From IMG/VR virus record IMGVR_UViG_2667527898_000028: a stretch of DNA of 9,030 bases; one strand, written 5' to 3'. Below the pieces are notes generated by a model that was not told the origin of the DNA, did not search any database, and was given only the letters and a program-made list of their open reading frames with translations. The DNA comes from a virus. Lineage: Duplodnaviria > Heunggongvirae > Uroviricota > Caudoviricetes. The position numbers and the translations under genes are program-made. Of the stretch, positions 1 through 9,030 are shown piece after piece. Each line of letters opens with the position of its first letter. Position 1 is the first letter of the stretch.

Positions 1-141
1 TTACTGCTTACACTGTAAGAACGCCGCAAACTCCGCTCCCCAGAAGCTCATCCGTATTTCACACAGCGAACCGTGTAGCATCCAGATGATGAGGATTACC
101 GTCACGCAGAACGTGATGGCCGTAAGCGATTTTTGCGACAT
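1..141 (-). CDS. Hok/Gef-family-like type I toxin, small membrane peptide (46 aa)
   Basis: Minus-strand ATG at 141..139 and TAA at 3..1 give MSQKSLTAITFCVTVILIIWMLHGSLCEIRMSFWGAEFAAFLQCKQ. This is a hydrophobic helix followed by SLCEIR and E-x-AAF, the layout I recognise from Hok/Gef/PndA toxins. GGAG sits about 8 nt upstream of the ATG. It is below the ORF-track size cutoff, and the window starts exactly on its stop codon. Family call is from motif memory, not a search. Confidence 0.5.
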   Translation of the reverse strand: MSQKSLTAITFCVTVILIIWMLHGSLCEIRMSFWGAEFAAFLQCKQ

Positions 142-202
142 AGCGCTTGCTCCTTTGTTGGAGAGGCGCTAACCTATCACTTGCTTAAGGTAGATATGTT
201 AG

Positions 203-238
203 GGCCTCGGTTAAACAGAAATGTTTTCCGGGGCCTTT
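203..238. other. Imperfect ~13-bp hairpin with GAAA loop, followed by TTT on the plus strand; candidate regulatory or terminator structure between ogr and the hok-like ORF
   Basis: GGCCTCGG-tt-AAACA-GAAA-TGTTT-t-CCGGGGCC: outer arms 203..210 / 228..235 (one G-U pair), inner arms 213..217 / 222..226. Followed by TTTCC on the plus strand. It lies in the 5' leader of the hok-like ORF, antisense to it. Confidence 0.3.
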
Positions 239-332
239 CCACATCTGGCCTTCGGGTATTCCCTCCGACCATCAGCCGAAAGGCACCCGCGCGTAATCTA
301 TCGCTTTTTTGTTACTCCGGCAATTCTGCCTG

Positions 333-593
333 TTAATTCTGAGGTAAAGGCAAACTCATCTGATTGTTTCCCCTGTGTGAAGCTGGCAGCTCATGCCACG
401 GGATACCTTCTGAAGAGTGAACGCCGGAGGTGTGTTTTGATGTGAATTTATGGAAAGCTTCCAGTGTTGAGAAGCATACGCCGCATTCCAGGTTGTTACA
501 CTGGTAATACTTTTGCCGCACGGTGTTTGAATCATTTTCAGGACGACTGGTGCGGATACGGGCAGATGCGCCACAAAGCGGACAACGGAACAT
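333..593 (-). CDS. ogr: Ogr/Delta-family zinc-finger late-gene transcription activator
   Basis: 86-aa ORF beginning MFRCPLCGASARIRTSR, with a C-x2-C ... C-x4-C cysteine arrangement (C4, C7, C32, C37) typical of P2 Ogr / 186 B / P4 Delta. AGGGAGG sits about 5 nt upstream of the ATG at 593. It lies immediately downstream of D on the same strand, as in P2. Confidence 0.8.
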   Translation of the reverse strand: MFRCPLCGASARIRTSRPENDSNTVRQKYYQCNNLECGVCFSTLEAFHKFTSKHTSGVHSSEGIPWHELPASHRGNNQMSLPLPQN

Positions 594-635
594 AGCGACC
601 TCCCTTAACGTGGTGCTGCTGCTATTCTAAGTTGC

Positions 636-1745
636 TCACTCTGTTTCTGCTATCCATTCCGAGATTTTTGCCTCAAGCTCAAGCTGCGTGGTAAAGCCGC
701 TGTTATCGATGGTGTGCTCGGCTTTTGCAATAATCCAGTCCTGATTATCAATCTCGCTTTTAAATCCTGTTACCGTGCCATGCATTTCGGGGTAGAGTTC
801 TGCACGACCACATGCCAGCGTGATGGAGAATGATGCGGCTCCGCGTTGTAGCTGCTGCCACTTTGCCGCCGCTGCGCGTCTTGCTGCCTGCTCGTTCTGA
901 TAAGTCTTGCGTAACACAAACACATTGCCTTCCGCGCCTTCCATATAATCACCTTCACGGCTGCTGCTTTTCTCCTTTTTGGGTTTTGGCGGTTTGCGGT
1001 GTTTCACGCTGACTTTTTTCTTTTTCCCGTAATTAAGATCAAGCCAGTAAGCGCGTACCCCCGTATACGCTTCGCGGTCAGCAATGCGGAACTGATGGCG
1101 ATCGCCACTGCTGCGCGTGATGGCGAACGATGGCAACGGCTGGCCCTGTGCGTTCACGCCACCGCCTGGCATAATGAATAACAGATTACCGCTTTTTACC
1201 GTGGTGATTGCGCCCAGCATTTCCGCCATGCGCGTAAGGAAGGACATGTCGCTTTCTTCGGTCTGGTCGGCGTGGTCGATTTCGATATCCATCAGCATTT
1301 CGCTGATTTGCGGTTTCAGACCATACCGATGAGCGATGGCGGATACCACACGCTCAACGGTCACATCATGCCAGGACACCTCACGTTTAACGTTAAATTC
1401 ATCCCGAAAATCTGCGCTTCTGGCTGAAACAGTCAGCCTGTCCGGCGGTCCTTCGTGAGCGATTTCATCAACAATGTAAGTGCCTTTTTCTGTCAGCGGT
1501 TCTCCTTTCCAGCCAATGAGAACCGTCAGGCGCGCGCCCCGTGGCGGTAGCTGCAACTGACCATCCGCATCATCCAGCGTGATGGTGAGCTGGTCCGCGT
1601 CAAATCCCCGGTTGTCGGTCAGTGACAGGCTCATCAGGCGCTCTGCCACGCCTGACAGCGTTTTACCCTCCGCGAGAATATCAAAATCCGGCATTTTCAC
1701 GGGGTCTGTGCCCTGACTGAGCAATTGCATGGTGGTATCGGTCAT
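636..1745 (-). CDS. D: P2 gpD-like tail protein (late control gene D family)
   Basis: ORF-track frame 636..1877. The likely true start is the internal Met (MTDTTMQLLSQG...) at about 1745, preceded by GGGAGG; the next Met at 1730 is an alternative. About 369 aa, close to P2 gpD size. Family recognised from overall sequence character and from its position beside ogr. A lysine-rich segment lies at about 960..1030. Confidence 0.85.
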   Translation of the reverse strand: MTDTTMQLLSQGTDPVKMPDFDILAEGKTLSGVAERLMSLSLTDNRGFDADQLTITLDDADGQLQLPPRGARLTVLIGWKGEPLTEKGTYIVDEIAHEGPPDRLTVSARSADFRDEFNVKREVSWHDVTVERVVSAIAHRYGLKPQISEMLMDIEIDHADQTEESDMSFLTRMAEMLGAITTVKSGNLLFIMPGGGVNAQGQPLPSFAITRSSGDRHQFRIADREAYTGVRAYWLDLNYGKKKKVSVKHRKPPKPKKEKSSSREGDYMEGAEGNVFVLRKTYQNEQAARRAAAAKWQQLQRGAASFSITLACGRAELYPEMHGTVTGFKSEIDNQDWIIAKAEHTIDNSGFTTQLELEAKISEWIAETE

Positions 1746-1902
1746 CTGTTCCCTCCCTGTGCGGCATGGTCGCATGTGCGTGCGGAGGGGGTTACTGCTT
1801 TTTGTTGTCGCCGGGTCGGGAGAACGGCGCAGGGGTGAGATTACGCGCGTGGTGGGTGATGATTGTTGCCGAATCATTTAACGGATACAAGGGGCTAAAG
1901 CT
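1746..1902. promoter_or_regulatory. Divergent intergenic region between D (minus) and FI (plus); presumed site of the late promoter for the FI operon
   Basis: 157-nt gap between divergent start codons. I could not find a convincing TGT-N12-ACA Ogr-box or a clear -10 by eye, so this is positional inference only. Confidence 0.3.
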
Positions 1903-3087
1903 ATGAGTGAAACTCGTTTTCATGGTGCCCGTGTTACGGAAAGTACCGACCTGGTAACAGCGATTAACGATGTTGATTCCAGCGTTATCGGTATCGTGGC
2001 AACGGCGGATGATGCGGACGCGAAGCTGTTCCCGCTGAACAAGCCCACACTGCTGACCCGCGTCAATGACGTGCTGGGAAAATGCGGGACAACGGGGACG
2101 CTTTATCGTGCGCTTAAGGCCATCGCAGACCAGGTGAGCACAAAGGTGATCGTCGTTCGCGTGGCTGAACACAAAGAAGAAAACGGAAAGACGCAGGATC
2201 AACTGGTTATCGGTGGTTCTGAATCTGACGGCAGCTATACGGGGATGTATGCGCTGCTTGTTGCAGAGCAGGATGAAAGCATCGGATACCGTCCGCGTAT
2301 TCTGGCCGCGCCGGAGCTGGACACGGAGGCGGTGACAAAATCCCTGTGCGTGATTGCGGGTAAACTGCGCGCGTTTGTGTATGCCACATGTCATGGTTGT
2401 AACACGATGGCTGAGGCGATTACCTACCGCCAGAAATTCAACGAACGTGAGGTGATGCTCTTATGGCCGGACTTCATCGCCTACAACCCGAAAAGTGGCA
2501 AAAACGAAACGTTCCCCGCGCCTGCTTATGCGTGCGGCCTTCGTGCGTACATTGACCATGAGCAGGGCTGGCACAAATCGCTGTCCAACGTTCCGGTTAA
2601 AAATGTGCTGGGGATGTCGAGGCATGTGTTCTGGTCGTTACAGGCCGAAGACAGTGATGCCAACAGCCTCAACAACAAAGAAATCACGACCATTATTCGT
2701 CGTAACGGGTTCCGCTTCTGGGGCAACCGCACACCGGAAACGAACGCCTACATCTTTGAGGTGTATACCCGAACCGCACAGGTGCTGGCTGATTCAATTG
2801 CGGAAGCGCAGTTTGAAACCATCGACAGTCCACTGACACCTGCGAACGTGAAGGATGTTATCAGCGCCATCAGAGCAAAACTGGATTCGCTGGTTACTGT
2901 CGGGAAACTGATTGGTGCGGAGTGCTGGTATGACGTGGTGGATAACAGCACCACGGGTTTACGTCAGGGGCGTGTGCGTATTCGCTACAAATATACGCCC
3001 GTTCCTCCGCTGGAAGACATGGAGCTTTACCAGTCGTTTACTGATGAATTCTTTGGTCCCGCATTTGCGGTGCTGGGAGGTGCCTGA
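1903..3087 (+). CDS. FI: Contractile tail sheath protein (P2 gpFI-like)
   Basis: 394 aa. Motifs remembered from P2 FI: GSYTGMYAL, KLRAFVYA, YRQKFNEREVMLLWPDF, DHEQGWHKSLSNV, RRNGFRFWGNRT, YTRTAQVLAD, YTPVPPLE. AAGGGG sits 8 nt upstream of the ATG. Confidence 0.92.
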   Translation: MSETRFHGARVTESTDLVTAINDVDSSVIGIVATADDADAKLFPLNKPTLLTRVNDVLGKCGTTGTLYRALKAIADQVSTKVIVVRVAEHKEENGKTQDQLVIGGSESDGSYTGMYALLVAEQDESIGYRPRILAAPELDTEAVTKSLCVIAGKLRAFVYATCHGCNTMAEAITYRQKFNEREVMLLWPDFIAYNPKSGKNETFPAPAYACGLRAYIDHEQGWHKSLSNVPVKNVLGMSRHVFWSLQAEDSDANSLNNKEITTIIRRNGFRFWGNRTPETNAYIFEVYTRTAQVLADSIAEAQFETIDSPLTPANVKDVISAIRAKLDSLVTVGKLIGAECWYDVVDNSTTGLRQGRVRIRYKYTPVPPLEDMELYQSFTDEFFGPAFAVLGGA

Positions 3088-3599
3088 TGGCTGTACCAAA
3101 ACATCTTCGCTTTTTTACGTTGTTTGTGGATGGTGAAAACGAAGTGGGTAAAGTGACATCCGTCACGCCACCCAAACTGACGCGCAAAACCGACAGCTAT
3201 CGTGGTGGTGGCATGATGGGGGCGGTAAGTATTGATCTCGGTCTGGACGACTCCGCGCTTGATGCGAGTTTTGTCATGGGGGGAGCTGTTCGTGCGCTGT
3301 TCCTTAAATATGGCGGCACGATTGACGGCACGCTGCTGCGTTTTGCGGGTGAATACTACACCGATGCAGAAAGCGATCTGTATGAAATCGAGATGCGCGG
3401 GCGTCTGACGGAAATTGATATGGGGGAAGCCAAACAGGGCGAAGCCACATCACACACTTACGCTGTCAAAAACACCTACTACAAGCTGATCGTTAACGAT
3501 CGCCCGCTGTGGGAAATCGACCTGTTGAACCACATCTACCGGAAGGACGGCAAGGACATTGTGCCTGACCGTATCCGTTCCGCGCTTGGGCTTGGCTGA
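3087..3599 (+). CDS. FII: Tail tube protein (P2 gpFII-like)
   Basis: 170 aa, beginning MAVPKHLRFF ... PKLTRK ... YRGGGMMGA ... DLGLDD ... RFAG. The start overlaps the FI stop (TGATG) and has a GGGAGG SD, indicating translational coupling. Confidence 0.92.
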   Translation: MAVPKHLRFFTLFVDGENEVGKVTSVTPPKLTRKTDSYRGGGMMGAVSIDLGLDDSALDASFVMGGAVRALFLKYGGTIDGTLLRFAGEYYTDAESDLYEIEMRGRLTEIDMGEAKQGEATSHTYAVKNTYYKLIVNDRPLWEIDLLNHIYRKDGKDIVPDRIRSALGLG

Positions 3600-3612
3600 T
3601 AAGTAATATGCA

Positions 3613-3634
3613 GGCGGCGCAGTGCGTCGCCTTT
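3613..3634 (+). terminator. GC-rich hairpin plus short T-run between FII and E; candidate partial terminator or attenuator
   Basis: GGCGGCGC-AGT-GCGTCGCC (8-bp stem with one G-U pair, 3-nt loop) followed by TTT, then AAGGAG and the E start codon. Confidence 0.3.
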
Positions 3635-3654
3635 GACTGAAAAGGAGACAACTG

Positions 3655-4029
3655 ATGAAAGACATCGATACTGAAACCCGGAATAACACCGTGGCGGATG
3701 ATGTGACGGCAGGTGAGGATATGGCTGTCGAACGTGGCGTAAAACTGACCCGACCAATTGAGCGTGGTGGCGAAAAAATCACGTATGTGGAGATCACCGG
3801 GGCTATTGAGCAGGCTGGATCCCTGCGTGGTCTGTCGCTGTCTGATGTGCTGAATCTGAAAGCGGATACCATGTTTACGCTGTTGCCTCGCGTGACCTCG
3901 CCACGACTGGATGAAGTGATGATTAAAAAAATGTCGTCACGCGATTTTATTCAGTTGTGCGCAGTGGCTGTAAATTTTATGAGCGAGCCAGACTCTGGCG
4001 CGAAGAGCGTGCAGGAGACGGCAGCGTAA
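3655..4029 (+). CDS. E: Tail assembly chaperone (P2 gpE-like)
   Basis: 124-aa ORF directly after FII, with GGAG 7 nt upstream. Position, size and the overlapping -1 frame ORF match the P2 E/E' arrangement. Confidence 0.8.
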   Translation: MKDIDTETRNNTVADDVTAGEDMAVERGVKLTRPIERGGEKITYVEITGAIEQAGSLRGLSLSDVLNLKADTMFTLLPRVTSPRLDEVMIKKMSSRDFIQLCAVAVNFMSEPDSGAKSVQETAA

Positions 4030-4193
4030 TCACCCTGGTGTGCTTTGAGCACATCGAAGATCTGGTGGCGGATATTGCCGCCATTTTTAACTGGTCGCCC
4101 GCCGAAATCTTCATGATGACGCCCGGCGAAGTGGTTAGCTGGCGCGAGCGGGCGGCACTTCGCAGCGGGAATGCAGATAATGAAGACTCTTGA
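3655..4193 (+). CDS. E': E+E' fusion product made by programmed -1 ribosomal frameshifting (predicted)
   Basis: The -1 frame is open from 3927 to the stop at 4191..4193 and overlaps the 3' end of E. The slippery heptamer A_AAT_TTT (3972..3978) is in the correct phase. Predicted fusion is about 179 aa, ending ...NWSPAEIFMMTPGEVVSWRERAALRSGNADNEDS. Confidence 0.55.
3972..3978 (+). other. Candidate -1 frameshift slippery heptamer AAATTTT, with a downstream hairpin
   Basis: Zero-frame codons are GTA AAT TTT ATG, so the heptamer is X_XXY_YYZ in phase. A hairpin GCCAG-ACT-CTGGC (3987..3999), extendable with flanking GCG, starts 5-9 nt downstream. Confidence 0.5.
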
Positions 4194-6987
4194 TATCCGG
4201 GTCGCTTTCAGCGCCGTTGACAGGCTGACCCGGCCTGCCGAAAACGCCCGCCGCCTGATGGGGCAGTTTGGTGACTCCATCCAGCGAACGCAGGGGGCGA
4301 TCAAAAATCTCGAGCGTCAGGCGCGTTCATTTGAGCGCGCCCGTGACGCTGTCAGTAAAGCGGATGCTGGCATCGTGAAAGCACGACGCCAGCTTAACGC
4401 CCTTAATCAGTTACAACGCACGGGTACAGTGCTCAGCGAAAAACAACAAAAGCTGATGCAGCAGTTAAGCACCCGGCTTGAACGCCTGAATGAATCGCGC
4501 ACACGGGAAATTCAGAAAATGCGGGAGCTTGGCGGAGAGCTGAAACGCCACGGCATTTCCCTGACAGGCAGCGATAACACCATCCAGCAGGCCATCAGAC
4601 GCACCGAACAGTACAACAACCAGCTTGAACGCGAACGGCAGGCGCTTGCGCGTGTAACGCGGGCGCGTGAGCGGTATTCGCGCGCGCAGGAAACCGCGGG
4701 AAAACTGAAAACAGGTGGTGCGCTGGCAATTGGTGCTGCAGCGGCTGGCGGCTATGCTGCCGGGCGTTTTTTGCAGCCTGCGATCGGGTTCGGCAAAGAG
4801 ATGTCCCGCGTTCAGGCACTGACGCGAATCGACAAAAACAGCCCGCAGTTTAAGGCGCTGCGTGAGCAGGCGTTAAAACTTGGTTCTGAAACACAGTTTA
4901 CTGCGAGTGATGCCGCCAGTGGGCAGAGCTTTCTGGCAATGGCTGGTTTTACTCCGCAGGCCATTCAGGCCGCATTGCCCGGTGTTCTTAATATGGCGCT
5001 GGCAGGTGGCGTCGAACTCGGCGAGACGGCTGATATAGGCTCCAATATCCTCACACAGTTCAACCTGACAGCCGATCAAATGGACCGGGTTGGCGATACG
5101 CTGACAGCAGCATTCACCCGGACCAATACTGATTTACGCGCGCTGGGCGAAACCATGAAGTATACCGGTCCGGTTGCCGCAAAACTTGGTATCAGTCTTG
5201 AAGAAGCGGCGGCCATGGCCGGGATGCTTGCCAATAATGGTCTTCGCGGAAGCGATGCTGGTACGGCCATGCGCGCAAGTCTGTCCCGCCTTGCATCACC
5301 GCCAAAAGCTGCGGCTGATGCACTGAAAGAGCTGGGGGTGTCAGTTGCTGACGCCAGAGGCAAAATGCGCCCGATGGAGGATGTGCTGCTTGATCTCTAT
5401 AAGGCGACACAAAAATACGGACAGGTGGACCAGGTCTCCTTCTTCAAGGACATCGCCGGAGAAGAGGCGTTCGTTGGTTTGCAGACGCTTGTTGCGGCGG
5501 CTGGTTCAGGAGAACTGCAAAAACTGACCAGAGAATTGCAGGGGGCAAGGGGAGAGGCCGATCGCGTTGCAAAAGTAATGGCCGATAATCTTGATGGAGA
5601 CCTGAAAAATCTCGACAGCGCATGGGAAGGTCTTCGTATTCGCATCAGTGATCTGGTTGACGGTCCGCTGCGTTCTGTCACGCAGTGGCTCACGCGGGTG
5701 CTTGAAAAAATCACCTCGCTGGCGCAGGCCCATCCGGTACTGACGCGCCAGCTACTGATAGCAGGCGGTGCGTTGCTGGCAATGACTGCAACGATTGGCT
5801 CGTTGTCGCTGGTTATTGGGGTGCTTTACGGGAAGCTGGCCACCTTGCGTCTTGGTTTCGACATTCTTACCCGGTCAATGAATGTCATCAGGGTGTTGCC
5901 TGCGCTGTGGGGAATGGTGACGGGTTCTGTTTCTTTGCTGGGTGGTGCTATCGGGGCGCTGTTCAGTCCGGTTGGTCTTATCGTGGCTGCGCTTGCCGGA
6001 GCTGCCGTTCTTATCTGGAAATACTGGGATCCCATCAGGGCATTTTTTGCCGGGGTGTTCAGCGGGATTATGGAAAGGCTGACCCCGTTGCGTGAAACCT
6101 TTGAACGGTTTGGCCCTGTTTTTGACGCAATCGGAAGCGGGATCAGCCTGGTGTTTAACTGGTTTAAATCGCTGTTGTCACCGATGGAGTCCAGCAAGGA
6201 AACGCTGGATAAATGCACCAGTGCTGGCGAGATATTCGGTAACGTTCTTGGCGGTGCGTTACAACTTGTTCTGACGCCTGCAAAAATGCTACTGGATACG
6301 CTGGCGTGGATACTTGAAAAACTTGGCGTCCTTCCGGATGAAGCGGAAAGGGCGCGCAAGAAAATCGAAGACGCACAGCGTGCGGCCATTCTTCAGGACA
6401 AGGTTGCCTTGCTTCAGGGGGACCTGGCGAAAATCAATCCGCCGAAGCCTGTGGAAAATGGCAATGGCACCGGAGGTGATAAACCCAAAGACAACAAACC
6501 GCTCACAGACAGCAATACCGGTACGCTACGCAGACTCAGCAAAATTGCTGATAACACAGGTAAGCTGGTTGATGAGACGAAAAAACGCATTGGCCCCGGC
6601 GATATTGTCTTTAAGAATCTGCCCCGCGCACTTGCTGTTCGTGGGGAGTGGCAGGAGCGGAAGATTGCGCAGGTCAGTAAGCCTGCTTCCGCAATCAACA
6701 TCACACCCGTGGTCCCGACTCCTCTGCCTCTGGCGCTGGTCCCTGTTGTTGCGGCCAGCTCCCGCCCGGTGGCGGAGGCCATACGATCGCCAGTGGCATC
6801 AGTTCCTGCAACTTCCCGTAACCGGGAGCCTGTTGTCTCCGGATTTGGCGGTGAAATTCATGTTCATCTGCATAACGTTGTTACGCAGAATCCCCGCGAA
6901 CTGGCGAAACTGGTCGGTGAAATGGTCAGGGCAGAATTGGAACGACGCGACCGTGCCGGACGTGGCAGTTTTTACGATAAAGATTGA
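4171..6987 (+). CDS. T: Tail tape measure protein (P2 gpT-like)
   Basis: 938 aa. N-terminal charged and predicted coiled-coil region, central tape-measure core (AMAGFTPQAIQAALPGVLNMALAGG ... MKYTGPVAAKLGISLEEAAAMAGMLANNGLRGSDAGTAMRASLSRL), hydrophobic helices at about aa 520-620, and a Pro/Lys-rich C-terminus. An alternative start is ATG 4180. The start overlaps the end of the E' frame. Confidence 0.9.
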   Translation: MQIMKTLDIRVAFSAVDRLTRPAENARRLMGQFGDSIQRTQGAIKNLERQARSFERARDAVSKADAGIVKARRQLNALNQLQRTGTVLSEKQQKLMQQLSTRLERLNESRTREIQKMRELGGELKRHGISLTGSDNTIQQAIRRTEQYNNQLERERQALARVTRARERYSRAQETAGKLKTGGALAIGAAAAGGYAAGRFLQPAIGFGKEMSRVQALTRIDKNSPQFKALREQALKLGSETQFTASDAASGQSFLAMAGFTPQAIQAALPGVLNMALAGGVELGETADIGSNILTQFNLTADQMDRVGDTLTAAFTRTNTDLRALGETMKYTGPVAAKLGISLEEAAAMAGMLANNGLRGSDAGTAMRASLSRLASPPKAAADALKELGVSVADARGKMRPMEDVLLDLYKATQKYGQVDQVSFFKDIAGEEAFVGLQTLVAAAGSGELQKLTRELQGARGEADRVAKVMADNLDGDLKNLDSAWEGLRIRISDLVDGPLRSVTQWLTRVLEKITSLAQAHPVLTRQLLIAGGALLAMTATIGSLSLVIGVLYGKLATLRLGFDILTRSMNVIRVLPALWGMVTGSVSLLGGAIGALFSPVGLIVAALAGAAVLIWKYWDPIRAFFAGVFSGIMERLTPLRETFERFGPVFDAIGSGISLVFNWFKSLLSPMESSKETLDKCTSAGEIFGNVLGGALQLVLTPAKMLLDTLAWILEKLGVLPDEAERARKKIEDAQRAAILQDKVALLQGDLAKINPPKPVENGNGTGGDKPKDNKPLTDSNTGTLRRLSKIADNTGKLVDETKKRIGPGDIVFKNLPRALAVRGEWQERKIAQVSKPASAINITPVVPTPLPLALVPVVAASSRPVAEAIRSPVASVPATSRNREPVVSGFGGEIHVHLHNVVTQNPRELAKLVGEMVRAELERRDRAGRGSFYDKD

Positions 6988-6999
6988 GGAGTCATGGCC

Positions 7000-7488
7000 A
7001 TGATGATGATCTACGGCATGTTTGTTTTTGAGCTGCGCACATTGCCGCATCAGCAGTTACAGCAAAACAAAAGCTGGCGGTATGTGAAAAATGAACGCGT
7101 TAACCGTTCAGCAAGCTGGCAGTATATCGGCGCAGGTGATGATCGCATCGTGCTTTCCGGCGTGCTTTATCCTGAAATTACAGGTGGCGAAGTGTCGCTT
7201 TCATTGCTGACCACGCAGGCATATACAGGACGGCCCTGGCCTCTGATTGATGGTGTCGGGCAGATTTACGGCATGTATGTACTGACTGAAACGAATACGA
7301 CCCGTTCCGAGTTTGATCGCTACGGTAAGGCGAAAAAGATAGAATTTTCACTGACTCTTGAACGCTGTGATGAGGATTTGCGGGAGCGCCTGCAATCCTC
7401 ATCGTTCAGCGATATGTTGTCCGGCTTCAAAGATAAGGTGACATCATCCCTTAATAGCGCGGCCAGCTCAGTTAAGGGGCTGCTCTGA
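7000..7488 (+). CDS. U: Tail protein gpU-like
   Basis: ORF-track frame 6994..7488. GGAG at 6988..6991 is too close to ATG 6994 but about 8 nt from ATG 7000 (MMMIYGMFVFEL...). Size and position after T match P2 gpU. Confidence 0.85.
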   Translation: MMMIYGMFVFELRTLPHQQLQQNKSWRYVKNERVNRSASWQYIGAGDDRIVLSGVLYPEITGGEVSLSLLTTQAYTGRPWPLIDGVGQIYGMYVLTETNTTRSEFDRYGKAKKIEFSLTLERCDEDLRERLQSSSFSDMLSGFKDKVTSSLNSAASSVKGLL

Positions 7489-7564
7489 TTTAACGTATGT
7501 CGCCAATTTCCTGATGAAGGTGACTGGCGACTTGCTGTTGTATGTCCTTCTCAGAAAATTGTTT

Positions 7565-7593
7565 TTGAATAATAAACAACAGGATTTTATAAT
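7565..7593 (+). promoter_or_regulatory. Near-consensus sigma70 promoter for the acetyltransferase cargo gene
   Basis: TTGAAT (7565..7570), 17-nt spacer, TATAAT (7588..7593), in an AT-rich context about 50 nt upstream of the RBS. Confidence 0.45.
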
Positions 7594-7644
7594 CTCTTAA
7601 CCTTATAACATGTGTGGTCTGAAATAATAATTAAGGAGATTATC

Positions 7645-8217
7645 GTGCTGTCTTACCTAATGGCAATTCACTTTGTTTTATTTGGGAACTCTACTAATTT
7701 AAAAAACTTCTGGAAACATGAAGTAATTCGGCGGAAACGTATGGATATCTGGAGGCTTTTAAGAGAGAAAAAGCAGCGTAACAGGAATTTCCTTTTCTGG
7801 TGGCGGTTGGCTAACGAAATGTATATTAATGGTAATAAATTACATAAGAAAGCTGCTAAAAAGTTAAACAATAAAATAATTAACAATTTTGGTTGCGAGA
7901 TTGGACTGGGCGCAAAAATTGGAAAAGGGCTAACAATTCCCCATCACGCTGGAATTGTTGTTCATTTTGCTGTTGATGCTGGTGAAAATCTGGTGTTACG
8001 ACAGAATACTACTATTGGACAGATAGATGGTGACATACCTGGTTCAAGAGTAAAAATTGGTAGTAACGTTGATATCGGAGCTAATTGTTGCATCATTGGA
8101 TTATCTCGTAAAATTGGGGATAATGTAAAAATAGGCGCAATGTCTTTTATAAATAAAGATATACCATCGAACTGCACATATATAACTAAAAAGAACGGTG
8201 TTGTTTTGTATAAATAG
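7645..8217 (+). CDS. Hexapeptide-repeat (left-handed beta-helix) O-acetyltransferase, WcaB / serine-acetyltransferase-like
   Basis: The ORF-track frame starts at GTG 7612. GTG 7645 is preferred because AAGGAG sits 6 nt upstream; ATG 7660 is an alternative. The C-terminal half carries imperfect hexapeptide repeats (GAKIGKGLTIPHHAGIVV, TTIGQIDGDIPGSRVKIGSNVDIGANCCIIG, IGDNVKIGAMSFI) after a basic helical N-terminal part, as in WcaB/CysE-type acetyltransferases. Codon usage is strongly AT-rich compared with the tail genes. Confidence 0.85.
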   Translation: MLSYLMAIHFVLFGNSTNLKNFWKHEVIRRKRMDIWRLLREKKQRNRNFLFWWRLANEMYINGNKLHKKAAKKLNNKIINNFGCEIGLGAKIGKGLTIPHHAGIVVHFAVDAGENLVLRQNTTIGQIDGDIPGSRVKIGSNVDIGANCCIIGLSRKIGDNVKIGAMSFINKDIPSNCTYITKKNGVVLYK

Positions 8218-8227
8218 AGCACATAAA

Positions 8228-8262
8228 GCCATCGATATTTCTATCGATGGCTTTTTCTTTTT
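8228..8262. terminator. Rho-independent terminator between convergent genes, probably bidirectional
   Basis: Perfect 10-bp stem GCCATCGATA / TATCGATGGC with TTTC loop, followed by TTTTTCTTTTT on the plus strand. It sits between the acetyltransferase stop (8217) and the tfa stop (8261..8263). Confidence 0.75.
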
Positions 8263-8754
8263 ATTGTGGGGCGACTGGCCACTCAATATCTGCTGCTACT
8301 GTTGTATCAACACGATGCAACAATACTCGATATGTCTTCCATGCAGCCAGTAACGATGTCTCTTCCTCCGTCGCAATATCTAAATCTATAGCATCCTGAA
8401 GTGGTGCAATATGCTCACTGGCTACCTGCATCAGGCTGTTTTTTGTTTCTTCCGCCTCCCTTATCCGAAATAGTTTTTCTGCTTCTGCATCTTTCACCCA
8501 GGATGTGCCGTTCCACTTCTGATACTCTCCATACGGCGACAACCAGGTAACATTTTCCGGTAACGGACCGAGTTCAGAAATAAATAACGAGTCCCCTGAT
8601 GCCACGTCATAAACCGTTTTACCCCGATGGTCTTCAACGAGATGCCACGATGCCTCATCACTGTTGAAAACAACCACGAAGCCAGCCGGAATATCTGGGC
8701 AATATCAGTACTGTTTGCAGGCAAACCTGTATGAAGTGGAATGGCACAAGAGAC
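8261..8754 (-). pseudogene. Tail fibre assembly protein (Tfa/gpG family), frameshifted and 5'-truncated
   Basis: The C-terminal part (ORF 8261..8677) ends ...[26 protein letters not shown], the conserved Tfa C-terminus. Upstream, the homology continues in another frame (ORF 8494..8724, ...[12 protein letters not shown]) and switches frame at about 8696..8700, in a C-run, to ...[18 protein letters not shown]. The open frame ends at a stop at 8755..8757, so the usual N-terminal 30-40 aa are absent. Confidence 0.7.
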
Positions 8755-9030
8755 TTACAAAAGAATCAGGCAAAACGCCTGATTGATGAGAGCCCCGAAC
8801 TACTGAAATCTGTCGTCAAATTTGCGCTGGTAACTGTTCTGAGAAAGTCGAACATCATAAATCTGGAGTGGCAACAGATTGACATGCAGCGACAAGTTGC
8901 CAGGGTGAATCCAGAAGATAGCAAATCAAACCGCGCCATTGGTGTGGCGCTGAACGATACCGCCTCTAAAGTGTTGCGTGATCAAACAGGCAAGCATCAC
9001 AAATGTGGGTGTACATACCAGGGCGGCTAA
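8731..9030 (+). pseudogene. Tyrosine-integrase fragment (start of the catalytic domain only)
   Basis: 99-aa ORF containing [47 protein letters not shown], the Arg-box / L-x-W-x-x-I-D region at the start of phage integrase catalytic domains. It lacks the N-terminal DNA-binding part and the downstream H-x-x-R ... Y catalytic residues, and ends ...[12 protein letters not shown] at a stop at the window edge. Confidence 0.6.

Follow-up and report, generated by a model that had tools for sequence, protein, structure and literature searches.

The 9,030-nt stretch of DNA analysed here (the window) carries, between the tail gene gpU and a truncated tail-fibre assembly gene (tfa), a gene for a hexapeptide-repeat acetyltransferase that is a passenger of tail-fibre/tfa cassettes traded among P2-, P1- and lambda-like phages. 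This passenger status is the main feature of the gene, and it was missing from the picture of cargo DNA given in the initial annotation. We put at about even the chances that the gene is a lysogenic-conversion moron whose product adds O-acetyl groups to a glycan of the cell envelope, with the LPS core as the likeliest candidate.

Gene anatomy and prophage setting

The acetyltransferase gene occupies a block of deviant base composition (Table 1). The GC content was 33.6% over positions 7540-8262 compared with 53.8% in positions 1-7494 and 47% on the right flank (34% for 7495-8260 versus 54% leftward), and GC3 was 0.31 for the acetyltransferase ORF versus 0.56-0.60 for gpU, T, and FI. The initial annotation had proposed such an AT-rich cargo block, and the promoter, the AAGGAG sequence 6 nt ahead of GTG 7645, and the ORF of ~190 aa that it described were all found where it had placed them; its 10-bp hairpin with a T-run is real and is part of a 13-bp perfect stem. 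The start at GTG 7645 agrees with that assigned by PGAP in E. coli 55989, and a 201-aa form beginning at GTG 7612 is a longer, purely mechanical reading of the same ORF.

Table 1. Features of the acetyltransferase gene and its flanks (positions in the 9,030-nt window)
Feature	Position	Strand	Details
gpU tail gene, left neighbour	6994..7488	+	Pfam Phage_P2_GpU, 3.2e-39
Hairpin 3' of the gpU stop	7499..7531	+	GTCGCCA...TGGCGAC, ~-21 kcal/mol (RNAfold)
Candidate sigma-70-type promoter, TTGAAT-N17-TATAAT	7565..7593	+	TTGAAT 7565-7570, TATAAT 7588-7593; 10/12 match
Shine-Dalgarno sequence, AAGGAG	7633..7638	+	6-nt spacer to GTG 7645
WcaB/CysE-like LbH acetyltransferase ORF	7645..8217	+	190 aa, intact; phrog_2154; database name 'serine acetyltransferase'
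13-bp perfect hairpin, loop TTTC, then T-run TTCTTTTTAT	8225..8254		~-19.5 kcal/mol on either strand
tfa, tail-fibre assembly gene	8261..8677	-	Truncated to 138/192 aa; Caudo_TAP, 4e-41
Right breakpoint	8743..9030	+	P2-like prophage homology stops; DLP12/argU-type integrase remnant starts

The promoter match is not significant by itself, because shuffled sequences yielded 3.1 ± 2.0 promoter-like sites compared with the five counted in positions 7300-8500. Among copies of the gene, that of E. coli 55989 has the same promoter sequence, whereas the promoter has decayed in the lambdoid copy and has been replaced in the P1-like copies. The second hairpin sits between the stop codons of the convergent acetyltransferase and tfa genes and, because it is downstream of both, is probably a bidirectional terminator; the hairpin that follows gpU may dampen transcription running on from the FI-U late operon, with which the acetyltransferase gene is co-oriented. 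The sole match in an Rfam scan was IS009, located inside the neighbouring tfa, with none within the cargo region.

Comparison with related prophages showed the slot to be variable. In related P2-like prophages that lack the cargo, homology to the window ends at position 7494, 6 nt past gpU, and the slot in one gene-free relative holds a tfa' remnant. At least 80% of the window was present in 1332 E. coli genomes, and the gene itself in only ~510 (~10% of 5426 complete E. coli genomes), as expected of the autonomous cargo that had been proposed. We class the gene as a prophage moron: it has a candidate promoter and terminator of its own and deviant GC content, and it comes and goes between neighbours that are conserved.

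The position of the gene between gpU and a tfa remnant was confirmed by the family matches of both neighbours (Table 1). This copy lacks baseplate, head, and fibre genes, as evidenced by the loss of P2-like homology at the right breakpoint. Positions 7495-7562 are particular to the P2-like context, and lambdoid homology begins at 7563. Two points of the initial annotation required correction, both of which concern the G-FI junction of P2-like phages, which it had cited as a known cargo hotspot with tin as an example. The FI-U block of this prophage lineage is inverted relative to P2, so that the slot is the convergent U/tfa junction and not G-FI, and tin is found together with old at the cos-proximal gpA-gpQ hotspot (PMC9122126).

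Enzyme class and candidate acceptors

The protein has a CysE-type fold, in which residues 2-82 form five helices and hexapeptide repeats then build a left-handed beta-helix (LbH); this places it in the LbH acyltransferase superfamily. NCBIfam models matched were EpsC (5.7e-21), cysE (5.9e-17), and WcaB (1.9e-14), and blastp against K-12 proteins returned WcaB (35% over 109 aa, E = 3e-14) and CysE (34%, E = 2.5e-10), in agreement with the hexapeptide acyltransferase class initially assigned; in a family HMM comparison, WcaB scored 96 bits and CysE 73 bits. Judged by these sequence scores, the nearest E. coli relative is WcaB, with CysE second. Of the four proteins originally suggested for comparison, WcaB and CysE proved to be homologous, but WbbJ and NeuO, as well as WcaF, showed generic hexapeptide similarity only. 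The general-base histidine and its acidic partner are retained (H100 and E85, corresponding to CysE H158 and D143), and H100 is at least 90% conserved among 53 family members. The sole match in PHROGs was phrog_2154, labelled 'unknown function', and a BFVD structure search returned nothing significant (best E = 0.3). We classify the product within the CysE/WcaB branch of the LbH superfamily, as a soluble O-acetyltransferase that depends on acetyl-CoA and probably forms trimers.

The genes adjoining homologues point to the LPS core as the acceptor, in contexts that belong to homologues 41-62% identical to the window copy and not to that copy itself. The homologue in Leminorella is the final gene of a waaP-B-O-Y-Z operon, facing waaL, and those in Mixta and the MAG UBA2655 adjoin waaQGPO; these waa contexts surfaced through a targeted tblastn search with K-12 waa proteins. 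The Zophobihabitans homologue occurs with two GT9 genes, a GT25 gene, and a pyruvyltransferase gene, the Gilliamella homologue with a GT9 gene, and prophage homologues located beside tail fibre genes pair with GT25 (Xenorhabdus), a GT9-like gene (Morganella), or HtrL_YibB. Counting against this reading, only ~6 of the 80 distant-homologue loci examined in 80 species genomes were in waa-type clusters, and the 300 neighbours in the census were spread over 144 and 162 Pfam families, mostly non-glycan. Small ORFs upstream of some homologues were mutually non-homologous, so that we no longer considered a conserved partner gene. O-acetylated core types have, to our knowledge, not been reported in E. 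coli, which likewise counts against the LPS core.

These contexts strengthen the case for surface-glycan conversion made in the initial annotation, although they favour the LPS core over the O-antigen, capsule, or colanic acid that it had named. We infer the following course of events, in which the identity of the acceptor, the activity of the gene in the lysogen, and the advantage conferred are all putative. The gene would be transcribed in the lysogen from its own sigma-70 promoter, with read-through from the FI-U late operon as a possible addition; AT-rich DNA is often silenced by H-NS, which counts against lysogen expression from a promoter recognized by its consensus only. The enzyme would modify a glycan intermediate on the cytoplasmic side of the inner membrane, much as WcaB does with Und-PP-linked colanic-acid units, and the most likely acceptor would be the core oligosaccharide of lipid A-core prior to flipping by MsbA. 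Acetylation of the surface would alter recognition by LPS-core-dependent tail fibres, and the altered recognition would shield the lysogen from superinfection and keep released progeny off debris.

The same enzyme and the same logic could apply to a different envelope acceptor, namely colanic acid, an O-antigen repeat unit, ECA, or capsule. In its favour, a colanic-acid intermediate is the substrate of WcaB, to which the protein is closer than to any other characterised enzyme, NeuO provides a prophage precedent for capsule acetylation, and some distant homologues neighbour NeuB, UDP-glucose dehydrogenase, GT1, GT2, or Wzy_C. We nevertheless regard it as rather unlikely, since the partners that recur belong to LPS-core families (GT9, GT25, HtrL, and the waa operon) and no homologue was seen within a wca cluster; furthermore, the E. 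coli allele is distributed across many serotypes (O157:H7, O55:H7, O111, 55989, and others), which argues against an O-unit-specific acceptor.

The marked heterogeneity of the neighbours, together with the fact that prophages, phage-plasmids, and plasmids carry the gene as a lone orphan under its own promoter, would also suit an enzyme that detoxifies or modifies a small molecule (an antibiotic, bacteriocin, or metabolite) or an undescribed intracellular anti-phage or counter-defence enzyme, and one homologue is located near a Wadjet JetD gene. Such a role appears improbable to us. Searches of the PADLOC-DB 2.0 defence models with the 190-aa and 201-aa forms returned no family at E<=1, so that a known defence system label was dropped and the protein stays outside the described anti-phage defence families, where the initial annotation had left it. 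NCBIfam likewise gave no match to CatB/Vat-type xenobiotic acetyltransferase families, and the waa-operon members and glycosyltransferase partners would be left unexplained.

The database name and the conserved catalytic His/acid pair would be accounted for if the gene encoded a genuine serine O-acetyltransferase, that is, an auxiliary metabolic gene raising O-acetylserine for cysteine supply or induction of the CysB regulon, but this is very unlikely. Scores were well below the curated cut-offs of the cysE model TIGR01172 (62.2 versus 210.65 bits), NF041874 (75 versus 150), and NF008349 (40.1 versus 397), and WcaB outscores CysE. The serine-binding D157 of CysE is replaced by P99, R192/H193 align with S134/R135 in a loop that is variable within the family, and the D92-P93 segment is missing. 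Most of the CysE N-terminal domain is absent (the domain here is just ~80 residues, with no match to Pfam SATase_N), and the C-terminus ends ~10 residues past the LbH, without the CysK-binding tail. In addition, no cysteine-pathway genes were present among the 25 commonest Pfam families in each of two 150-neighbour sets. We therefore rejected this reading on residues and cut-offs: because the CysE serine-binding residues and C-terminal tail are lacking, the protein is probably not a serine acetyltransferase. The residue analysis suggests that the name 'serine acetyltransferase' is wrong database-wide, an annotation issue that concerns a common gene, found in ~10% of complete E. coli genomes.

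Linkage to tail-fibre cassettes

A convergent tfa was located within ~100 bp of the acetyltransferase gene in 64 of 72 IMG/VR loci, and four more loci had a co-directional tfa. The convergent pairing is kept with acetyltransferases that are 44-67% identical and whose tfa are 37-54% identical. The module occurs in P2-like prophage, P1-like phage, and lambdoid J-lom-stf-tfa backgrounds, and in the P1-like phage JL22 it lies inside the cin-invertible segment; the adjoining fibre tip shares 63% identity with the C-terminus of T4 gp37. Carriers include major STEC lineages, P1-like phage-plasmids, and lambdoid prophages. Counting against the LPS-core reading, further homologues were observed beside integrases, behind the bfp operon of the EPEC EAF plasmid, and, as mentioned, near the Wadjet JetD gene. 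In the literature consulted, the only mentions of the gene are as cargo of unknown role in JL22 and in the C. rodentium prophage PhiNP (PMC9603915, PMC6456863), and the gene is not in the P2 hotspot study.

The persistent adjacency to tfa and fibre genes raises the question of a role in the virion, in which a glycan on the fibre or another phage component would be modified during lytic growth or fibre function would depend on the enzyme. Late read-through is possible for a gene co-oriented with the FI-U operon, and the pairing with glycosyltransferases in some prophages would be in keeping with such a role. We consider it most unlikely, however, because the gene is convergent to the fibre operon and outside it, has a putative promoter and terminator of its own as well as foreign composition, and has chromosomal homologues in host waa operons. 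Moreover, the acetyltransferase is absent from the majority of tfa and fibre genes in this family, which work without it (K-12 tfaQ/tfaR are examples), and on this ground a requirement for fibre assembly was rejected. Just as implausible is a neutral or decaying passenger kept by hitch-hiking on mobile fibre cassettes, despite the badly truncated prophage in which the window copy resides and the degraded promoter of the lambdoid copy, since the ORF is intact, the exact allele was found in 195 collection blocks, the family persists to ~40% identity with invariant catalytic motifs, and the acetyltransferase is under purifying selection (across three phage backgrounds, dN/dS was 0.10-0.18 overall and ~0.04-0.10 within residues 45-190).

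Under lysogenic conversion of the LPS core, the acetyltransferase gene and the tfa chaperone gene, often with a T4 gp37-like tip, would be inherited as a single unit, and recombination of fibre cassettes among P2-, P1-, and lambda-like phages would carry the acetyltransferase along. We tentatively suggest, as a possibility short of an even chance, that the acetyltransferase, Tfa, and the gp37-like tip constitute a portable 'bind-and-mask' cassette, the enzyme editing the LPS-core receptor of that very fibre in any chassis. Against lysogenic conversion of the LPS core, the adjacency to tfa could simply result from a permissive site at the late-operon end and hitch-hiking on very mobile fibre cassettes, most tfa genes of this family are without an acetyltransferase, and the gp37-like tip may bind OmpC instead of LPS.

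Implications and comparison with known systems

If the LPS-core reading is true, the gene would represent an uncharacterised family of soluble, CysE-fold LPS-core O-acetyltransferases and a second example after NeuO, by a distinct mechanism, of a receptor-editing enzyme encoded beside a receptor-binding gene. If bind-and-mask is true, adsorption-level exclusion would be at work in ~10% of E. coli, including O157:H7, O111, and 55989-type strains. There would be consequences for phage host-range prediction, phage-therapy resistance, LPS antigenicity, and serum or antimicrobial-peptide interactions.

Among characterised enzymes, WcaB (E. coli K-12 b2058) offers the closest likeness: both proteins are short, combine a helical N-terminus with an LbH, contain the motifs FGxEI...TIxHH...IGxNV, and lack the CysE-type C-terminal tail. 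The substrate of WcaB is a lipid-linked glycan on the cytoplasmic side. The prophage acetyltransferase differs from it in being phage-borne and outside the wca operon, in scoring 52-54 bits against the WcaB models TIGR04016 and NF007564 (cut-offs of ~195), and in having a longer N-terminal domain and family motifs of its own (FLFWWRLANEMY and RQNTTIG). From CysE it is set apart by the residue and terminal differences given above.

NeuO of prophage CUS-3 is likewise a soluble LbH O-acetyltransferase encoded on a prophage beside the gene of a receptor-binding protein; the endosialidase tailspike gene of CUS-3 is immediately followed by neuO, an arrangement that is a precedent for the gene layout. 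NeuO is a polysialic-acid O-acetyltransferase and modifies the glycan that its phage recognises. The prophage acetyltransferase falls outside the NeuO subfamily and lacks the poly-psi heptanucleotide tract, and because no tandem repeats were detected in the search of the region, NeuO-like phase variation is not expected. A similar genetic logic, in which a self-exclusion function is linked to the adsorption module, is seen in T5, where llp lies beside pb5, and in cor of phi80, N15, and HK022. FhuA is blocked directly by the products of llp and cor, which are lipoproteins or outer-membrane proteins, whereas the prophage gene encodes an enzyme with a putative glycan target.

Acetylation of LPS is a known mode of conversion by the membrane O-antigen acetyltransferases of seroconverting phages (PMC12373910, PMC3630932). 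The likeness of the prophage acetyltransferase to Oac of Sf6 and the D3 O-acetylase would lie in phage-encoded LPS acetylation as lysogenic conversion. Those two enzymes are integral-membrane AT3 proteins that act post-flip, whereas the prophage acetyltransferase, which gave no match to Pfam AT3 (acyltransferase-3), is a soluble LbH protein.

Anatomy of the cargo block and identity of its protein

The window comes from a P2-like prophage and covers its tail region. The cargo block between the stops of gpU and tfa has a GC content of 34%, compared with 54% in the 7.5 kb to its left; the acetyltransferase ORF has a GC3 of 0.31 versus 0.56-0.60 for the tail genes. The AT-rich composition described in the initial annotation was thus borne out, and the promoter, Shine-Dalgarno sequence, 190-aa ORF and hairpin with T-run that it listed were all present. 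PGAP assigns the identical GTG start in E. coli 55989. Promoter-like sites numbered 5 in the 1.2 kb scanned versus 3.1 in shuffles.

Features of the cargo block and its surroundings (window coordinates)
Feature	Position	Strand	Remark
hok/gef, ogr, gpD	left part of window	-	P2-like prophage genes
Hok/Gef-family toxin ORF	1-141	-	complete, 46 aa; extreme window edge, beside ogr
Region holding the FI-FII-E-E'-T-U block	333-7488		block on strand opposite D-ogr
gpD ORF	636-1877	-	413 aa
FI, FII, E/E', T, U		+	P2-like tail genes
gpU stop	7488	+	left border of cargo block
End of homology in gene-less relatives	7494		six bases past gpU
Start of DNA shared with the lambdoid copy	7563		exactly at -35 element
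Promoter TTGAAT-N17-TATAAT	7565-7593	+	consensus match only
AAGGAG-N6-GTG	GTG at 7645	+	Shine-Dalgarno and start
Acetyltransferase ORF	7645-8217	+	190 aa
Hairpin, perfect 13 bp, then T-run	8225-8254	both fold equally well	downstream of both convergent genes
tfa, truncated	8261-8677	-	convergent with acetyltransferase; right border of cargo block
Rfam IS009 (RF02111) candidate sRNA match	8298-8496	-	177 bits; gathering score 117
Integrase fragment abutting truncated tfa	8743-9030		P2-like prophage homology stops at 8743

Pfam recognized hexapeptide repeats in the protein, and the best NCBIfam matches were EpsC, CysE and WcaB, each far under its curated cut-off. When the protein was compared directly with K-12 proteins and NeuO of CUS-3, WcaB was closest (35% over 109 aa, E 3e-14) and CysE second (34%, E 2.5e-10), while no more than one or two generic hexapeptide turns were common to the protein and WcaF, WbbJ and NeuO (E about 0.005). 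The ranking was unchanged with a profile built from 53 family members (WcaB 96, CysE 73, then WcaF, WbbJ and NeuO at 25, 24 and 20 bits), in agreement with the WcaB/CysE-like type first proposed. The fold is of the CysE type, but the substrate-binding residues are not CysE-like: the catalytic His158/Asp143 pair is retained as H100/E85, the serine-binding Asp157 is replaced by Pro99, the loop corresponding to Arg192/His193 varies across the family, and the Asp92-Pro93 segment and CysK-binding tail are missing. An 'E...HH' pattern is common to the phage protein and WcaB. The database name 'serine acetyltransferase' is therefore probably a misnomer, and we regard the gene with high confidence as a left-handed beta-helix acetyltransferase moron rather than a true serine acetyltransferase. 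PHROGs places the protein in phrog_2154, a family of unknown function, and PADLOC returned no match for it, consistent with the earlier remark that it resembled no described anti-phage defence family.

Variable presence and selection

At least 80% of the window was found in about 1332 complete E. coli genomes, the gene in only 510. In the gene-less relatives its slot is taken up by a tfa' remnant and, after it, a different tfa and fibre. The site is variable among related prophages, a point that the initial annotation had proposed to check. Across P2-like, lambdoid and P1-like copies dN/dS was 0.10-0.18, with about 0.04-0.10 for residues 45-190 and much faster divergence in the first 44 codons. 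Judged from these sequence comparisons, the gene is variable cargo under selection; the rival reading is that of a neutral passenger.

The allele of the window recurs unchanged in 195 collection blocks, within intact prophages that occupy the uvrC-pgsA-tRNA locus. The window copy is part of a truncated element, its tfa being joined to a DLP12/argU-type integrase remnant. This junction is 99.7% identical to that of E. coli strains in which the DLP12/argU locus has shrunk to a tfa remnant, an integrase remnant and tRNA-Arg, which suggests recombination between two tfa copies. The IS009 match falls wholly inside the tfa remnant ORF, in its 3' half and with the same orientation, and that Rfam family seems to have been built on prophage tfa coding sequence.

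Elsewhere in the prophage, the Hok/Gef ORF (MSQKSLTAITFCVTVILIIWMLHGSLCEIRMSFWGAEFAAFLQCKQ) has the same arrangement with ogr in E. coli 55989, and no Sok-type RNA passed the Rfam threshold. gpD is 369 aa in exact-allele relatives, and in 55989 and others the annotation gives a truncated 'VgrG/Pvc8 family' protein of 266 aa, which points to variable decay of D among copies.

Linkage to tail-fibre cassettes

The main new finding is that the gene moves with tail-fibre cassettes. Copies with 88-97% protein identity lie convergent to the tfa 3' end in three kinds of phage that are unrelated to one another: P2-like prophages, P1-like phages (between U' and tfa in the cin-invertible segment of JL22) and lambdoid prophages (after J-lom-stf-tfa). 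P2-like and P1-like copies share the CDS, tfa and about 1.07 kb of fibre-gene 3' end at 88% identity, and the fibre tip and the T4 gp37 C-terminus share 63% identity. Among the 72 IMG/VR loci with sufficient downstream sequence, 64 had a tfa in convergent orientation about 20-100 bp away, four had a co-directional tfa just upstream, and in two an HtrL gene stood between acetyltransferase and tfa. The arrangement was kept with acetyltransferases at 44-67% identity whose tfa were at 37-54%. The association is one-way, since most tfa of the same family (K-12 tfaQ, tfaR) lack the acetyltransferase; fibre function thus does not require the gene, which is an accessory to it. Action on behalf of the virion is a rival explanation. 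Alternatively, insertion into a permissive site where the late operon ends, combined with hitch-hiking on highly recombinogenic fibre cassettes, could account for the adjacency.

In JL22 (L002 2840-10207) the gene sits in the middle of the invertible segment, flanked by two convergent tfa genes, and a P2-like relative without it (L005 5968-6054) has a tfa' remnant at the equivalent position; together these suggest an invertible fibre segment as the origin of the slot. In this lineage (window, L001, L005) the FI-FII-E-E'-T-U block is inverted relative to canonical P2 order, opposite in strand to D-ogr and the H-G baseplate/fibre genes, which makes gpU convergent with tfa and gives rise to the cargo slot.

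Proposed acceptor and relation to known systems

Chromosomal LPS-core loci harbour homologues with 41-52% identity: in Mixta beside a Kdo/WaaP-family kinase and waaQ-G-P-O, in MAG UBA2655 beside waaQ-G-P-O, in Zophobihabitans after two GT9 genes and a pyruvyltransferase and before a GT25 gene, and in Gilliamella before a GT9 gene. Prophage homologues in the slot from tail fibre to prophage end are likewise paired with LPS-type genes, namely a GT25 'LPS biosynthesis' glycosyltransferase (Xenorhabdus), a GT9-like gene of the heptosyltransferase family (Morganella) and HtrL_YibB (two viral contigs), the K-12 homologue of HtrL adjoining rfaD-waaFCL. For distant homologues, most of the remaining neighbours have no connection with glycans, and some members of the family are found beside integrases, on the EPEC EAF plasmid or close to a Wadjet gene. 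The 50%-identical homologue P0039 (L014-L018 5001-5594, EPEC EAF-type plasmids) is just downstream of the bundle-forming-pilus (bfp) operon, amid IS66 elements and EspF/IpaB-like fragments.

This context, drawn from homologues rather than the window copy, is suggestive rather than decisive for an LPS-core acceptor. We propose that a soluble acetyl-CoA-dependent O-acetyltransferase would be made in the lysogen from its own promoter and would acetylate a sugar of a cell-envelope glycan, most likely LPS core on lipid A, at the cytoplasmic face, altering the surface met by LPS-core-dependent fibres; linked to tfa and a fibre-tip module, it would let adsorption specificity and self-exclusion move as one. 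Action on an envelope glycan is reasonably likely, LPS core as that glycan is a tentative choice, and receptor masking as the benefit is more doubtful still. The surface-polysaccharide conversion first proposed is supported in part, and the homologue contexts shift it towards LPS core. Colanic acid, O-unit, ECA or capsule are rival acceptors; small-molecule modification or a defence function of a new sort is a further rival, as is a genuine serine acetyltransferase. No cysteine-pathway neighbours occurred among the 25 commonest families of either neighbour set.

Intact relatives also carry, between gpR and the lysis genes, a 626-aa gene (L193 16620-18500 and L001 15907-17787, both minus strand) with DUF1737, SASA (carbohydrate acetylesterase) and DUF6645 domains, which resembles the NanS-p sialate O-acetylesterases encoded by EHEC prophages; an acetyltransferase and an acetylesterase are thus found together in the same prophage.

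The gene is mentioned as cargo of unknown role in PMC9603915 and PMC6456863 and does not appear in the P2 hotspot study (PMC9122126), which puts tin and old at a hotspot other than the one implied by the initial annotation, correcting its placement of tin. The gene is common, its database name is probably wrong, and it lends itself readily to testing; its tail-fibre linkage and waa-cluster relatives are new, testable observations. Precedents for the layout are neuO directly downstream of the CUS-3 tailspike gene, llp beside pb5 in T5, and cor, which adjoins tail genes in phi80-type phages. We do not regard the gene as a new kind of system and class it with the glycan O-acetyltransferases that phages carry for lysogenic conversion: it resembles WcaB in chemistry and NeuO in phage logic, but belongs to neither family, nor to that of CysE.
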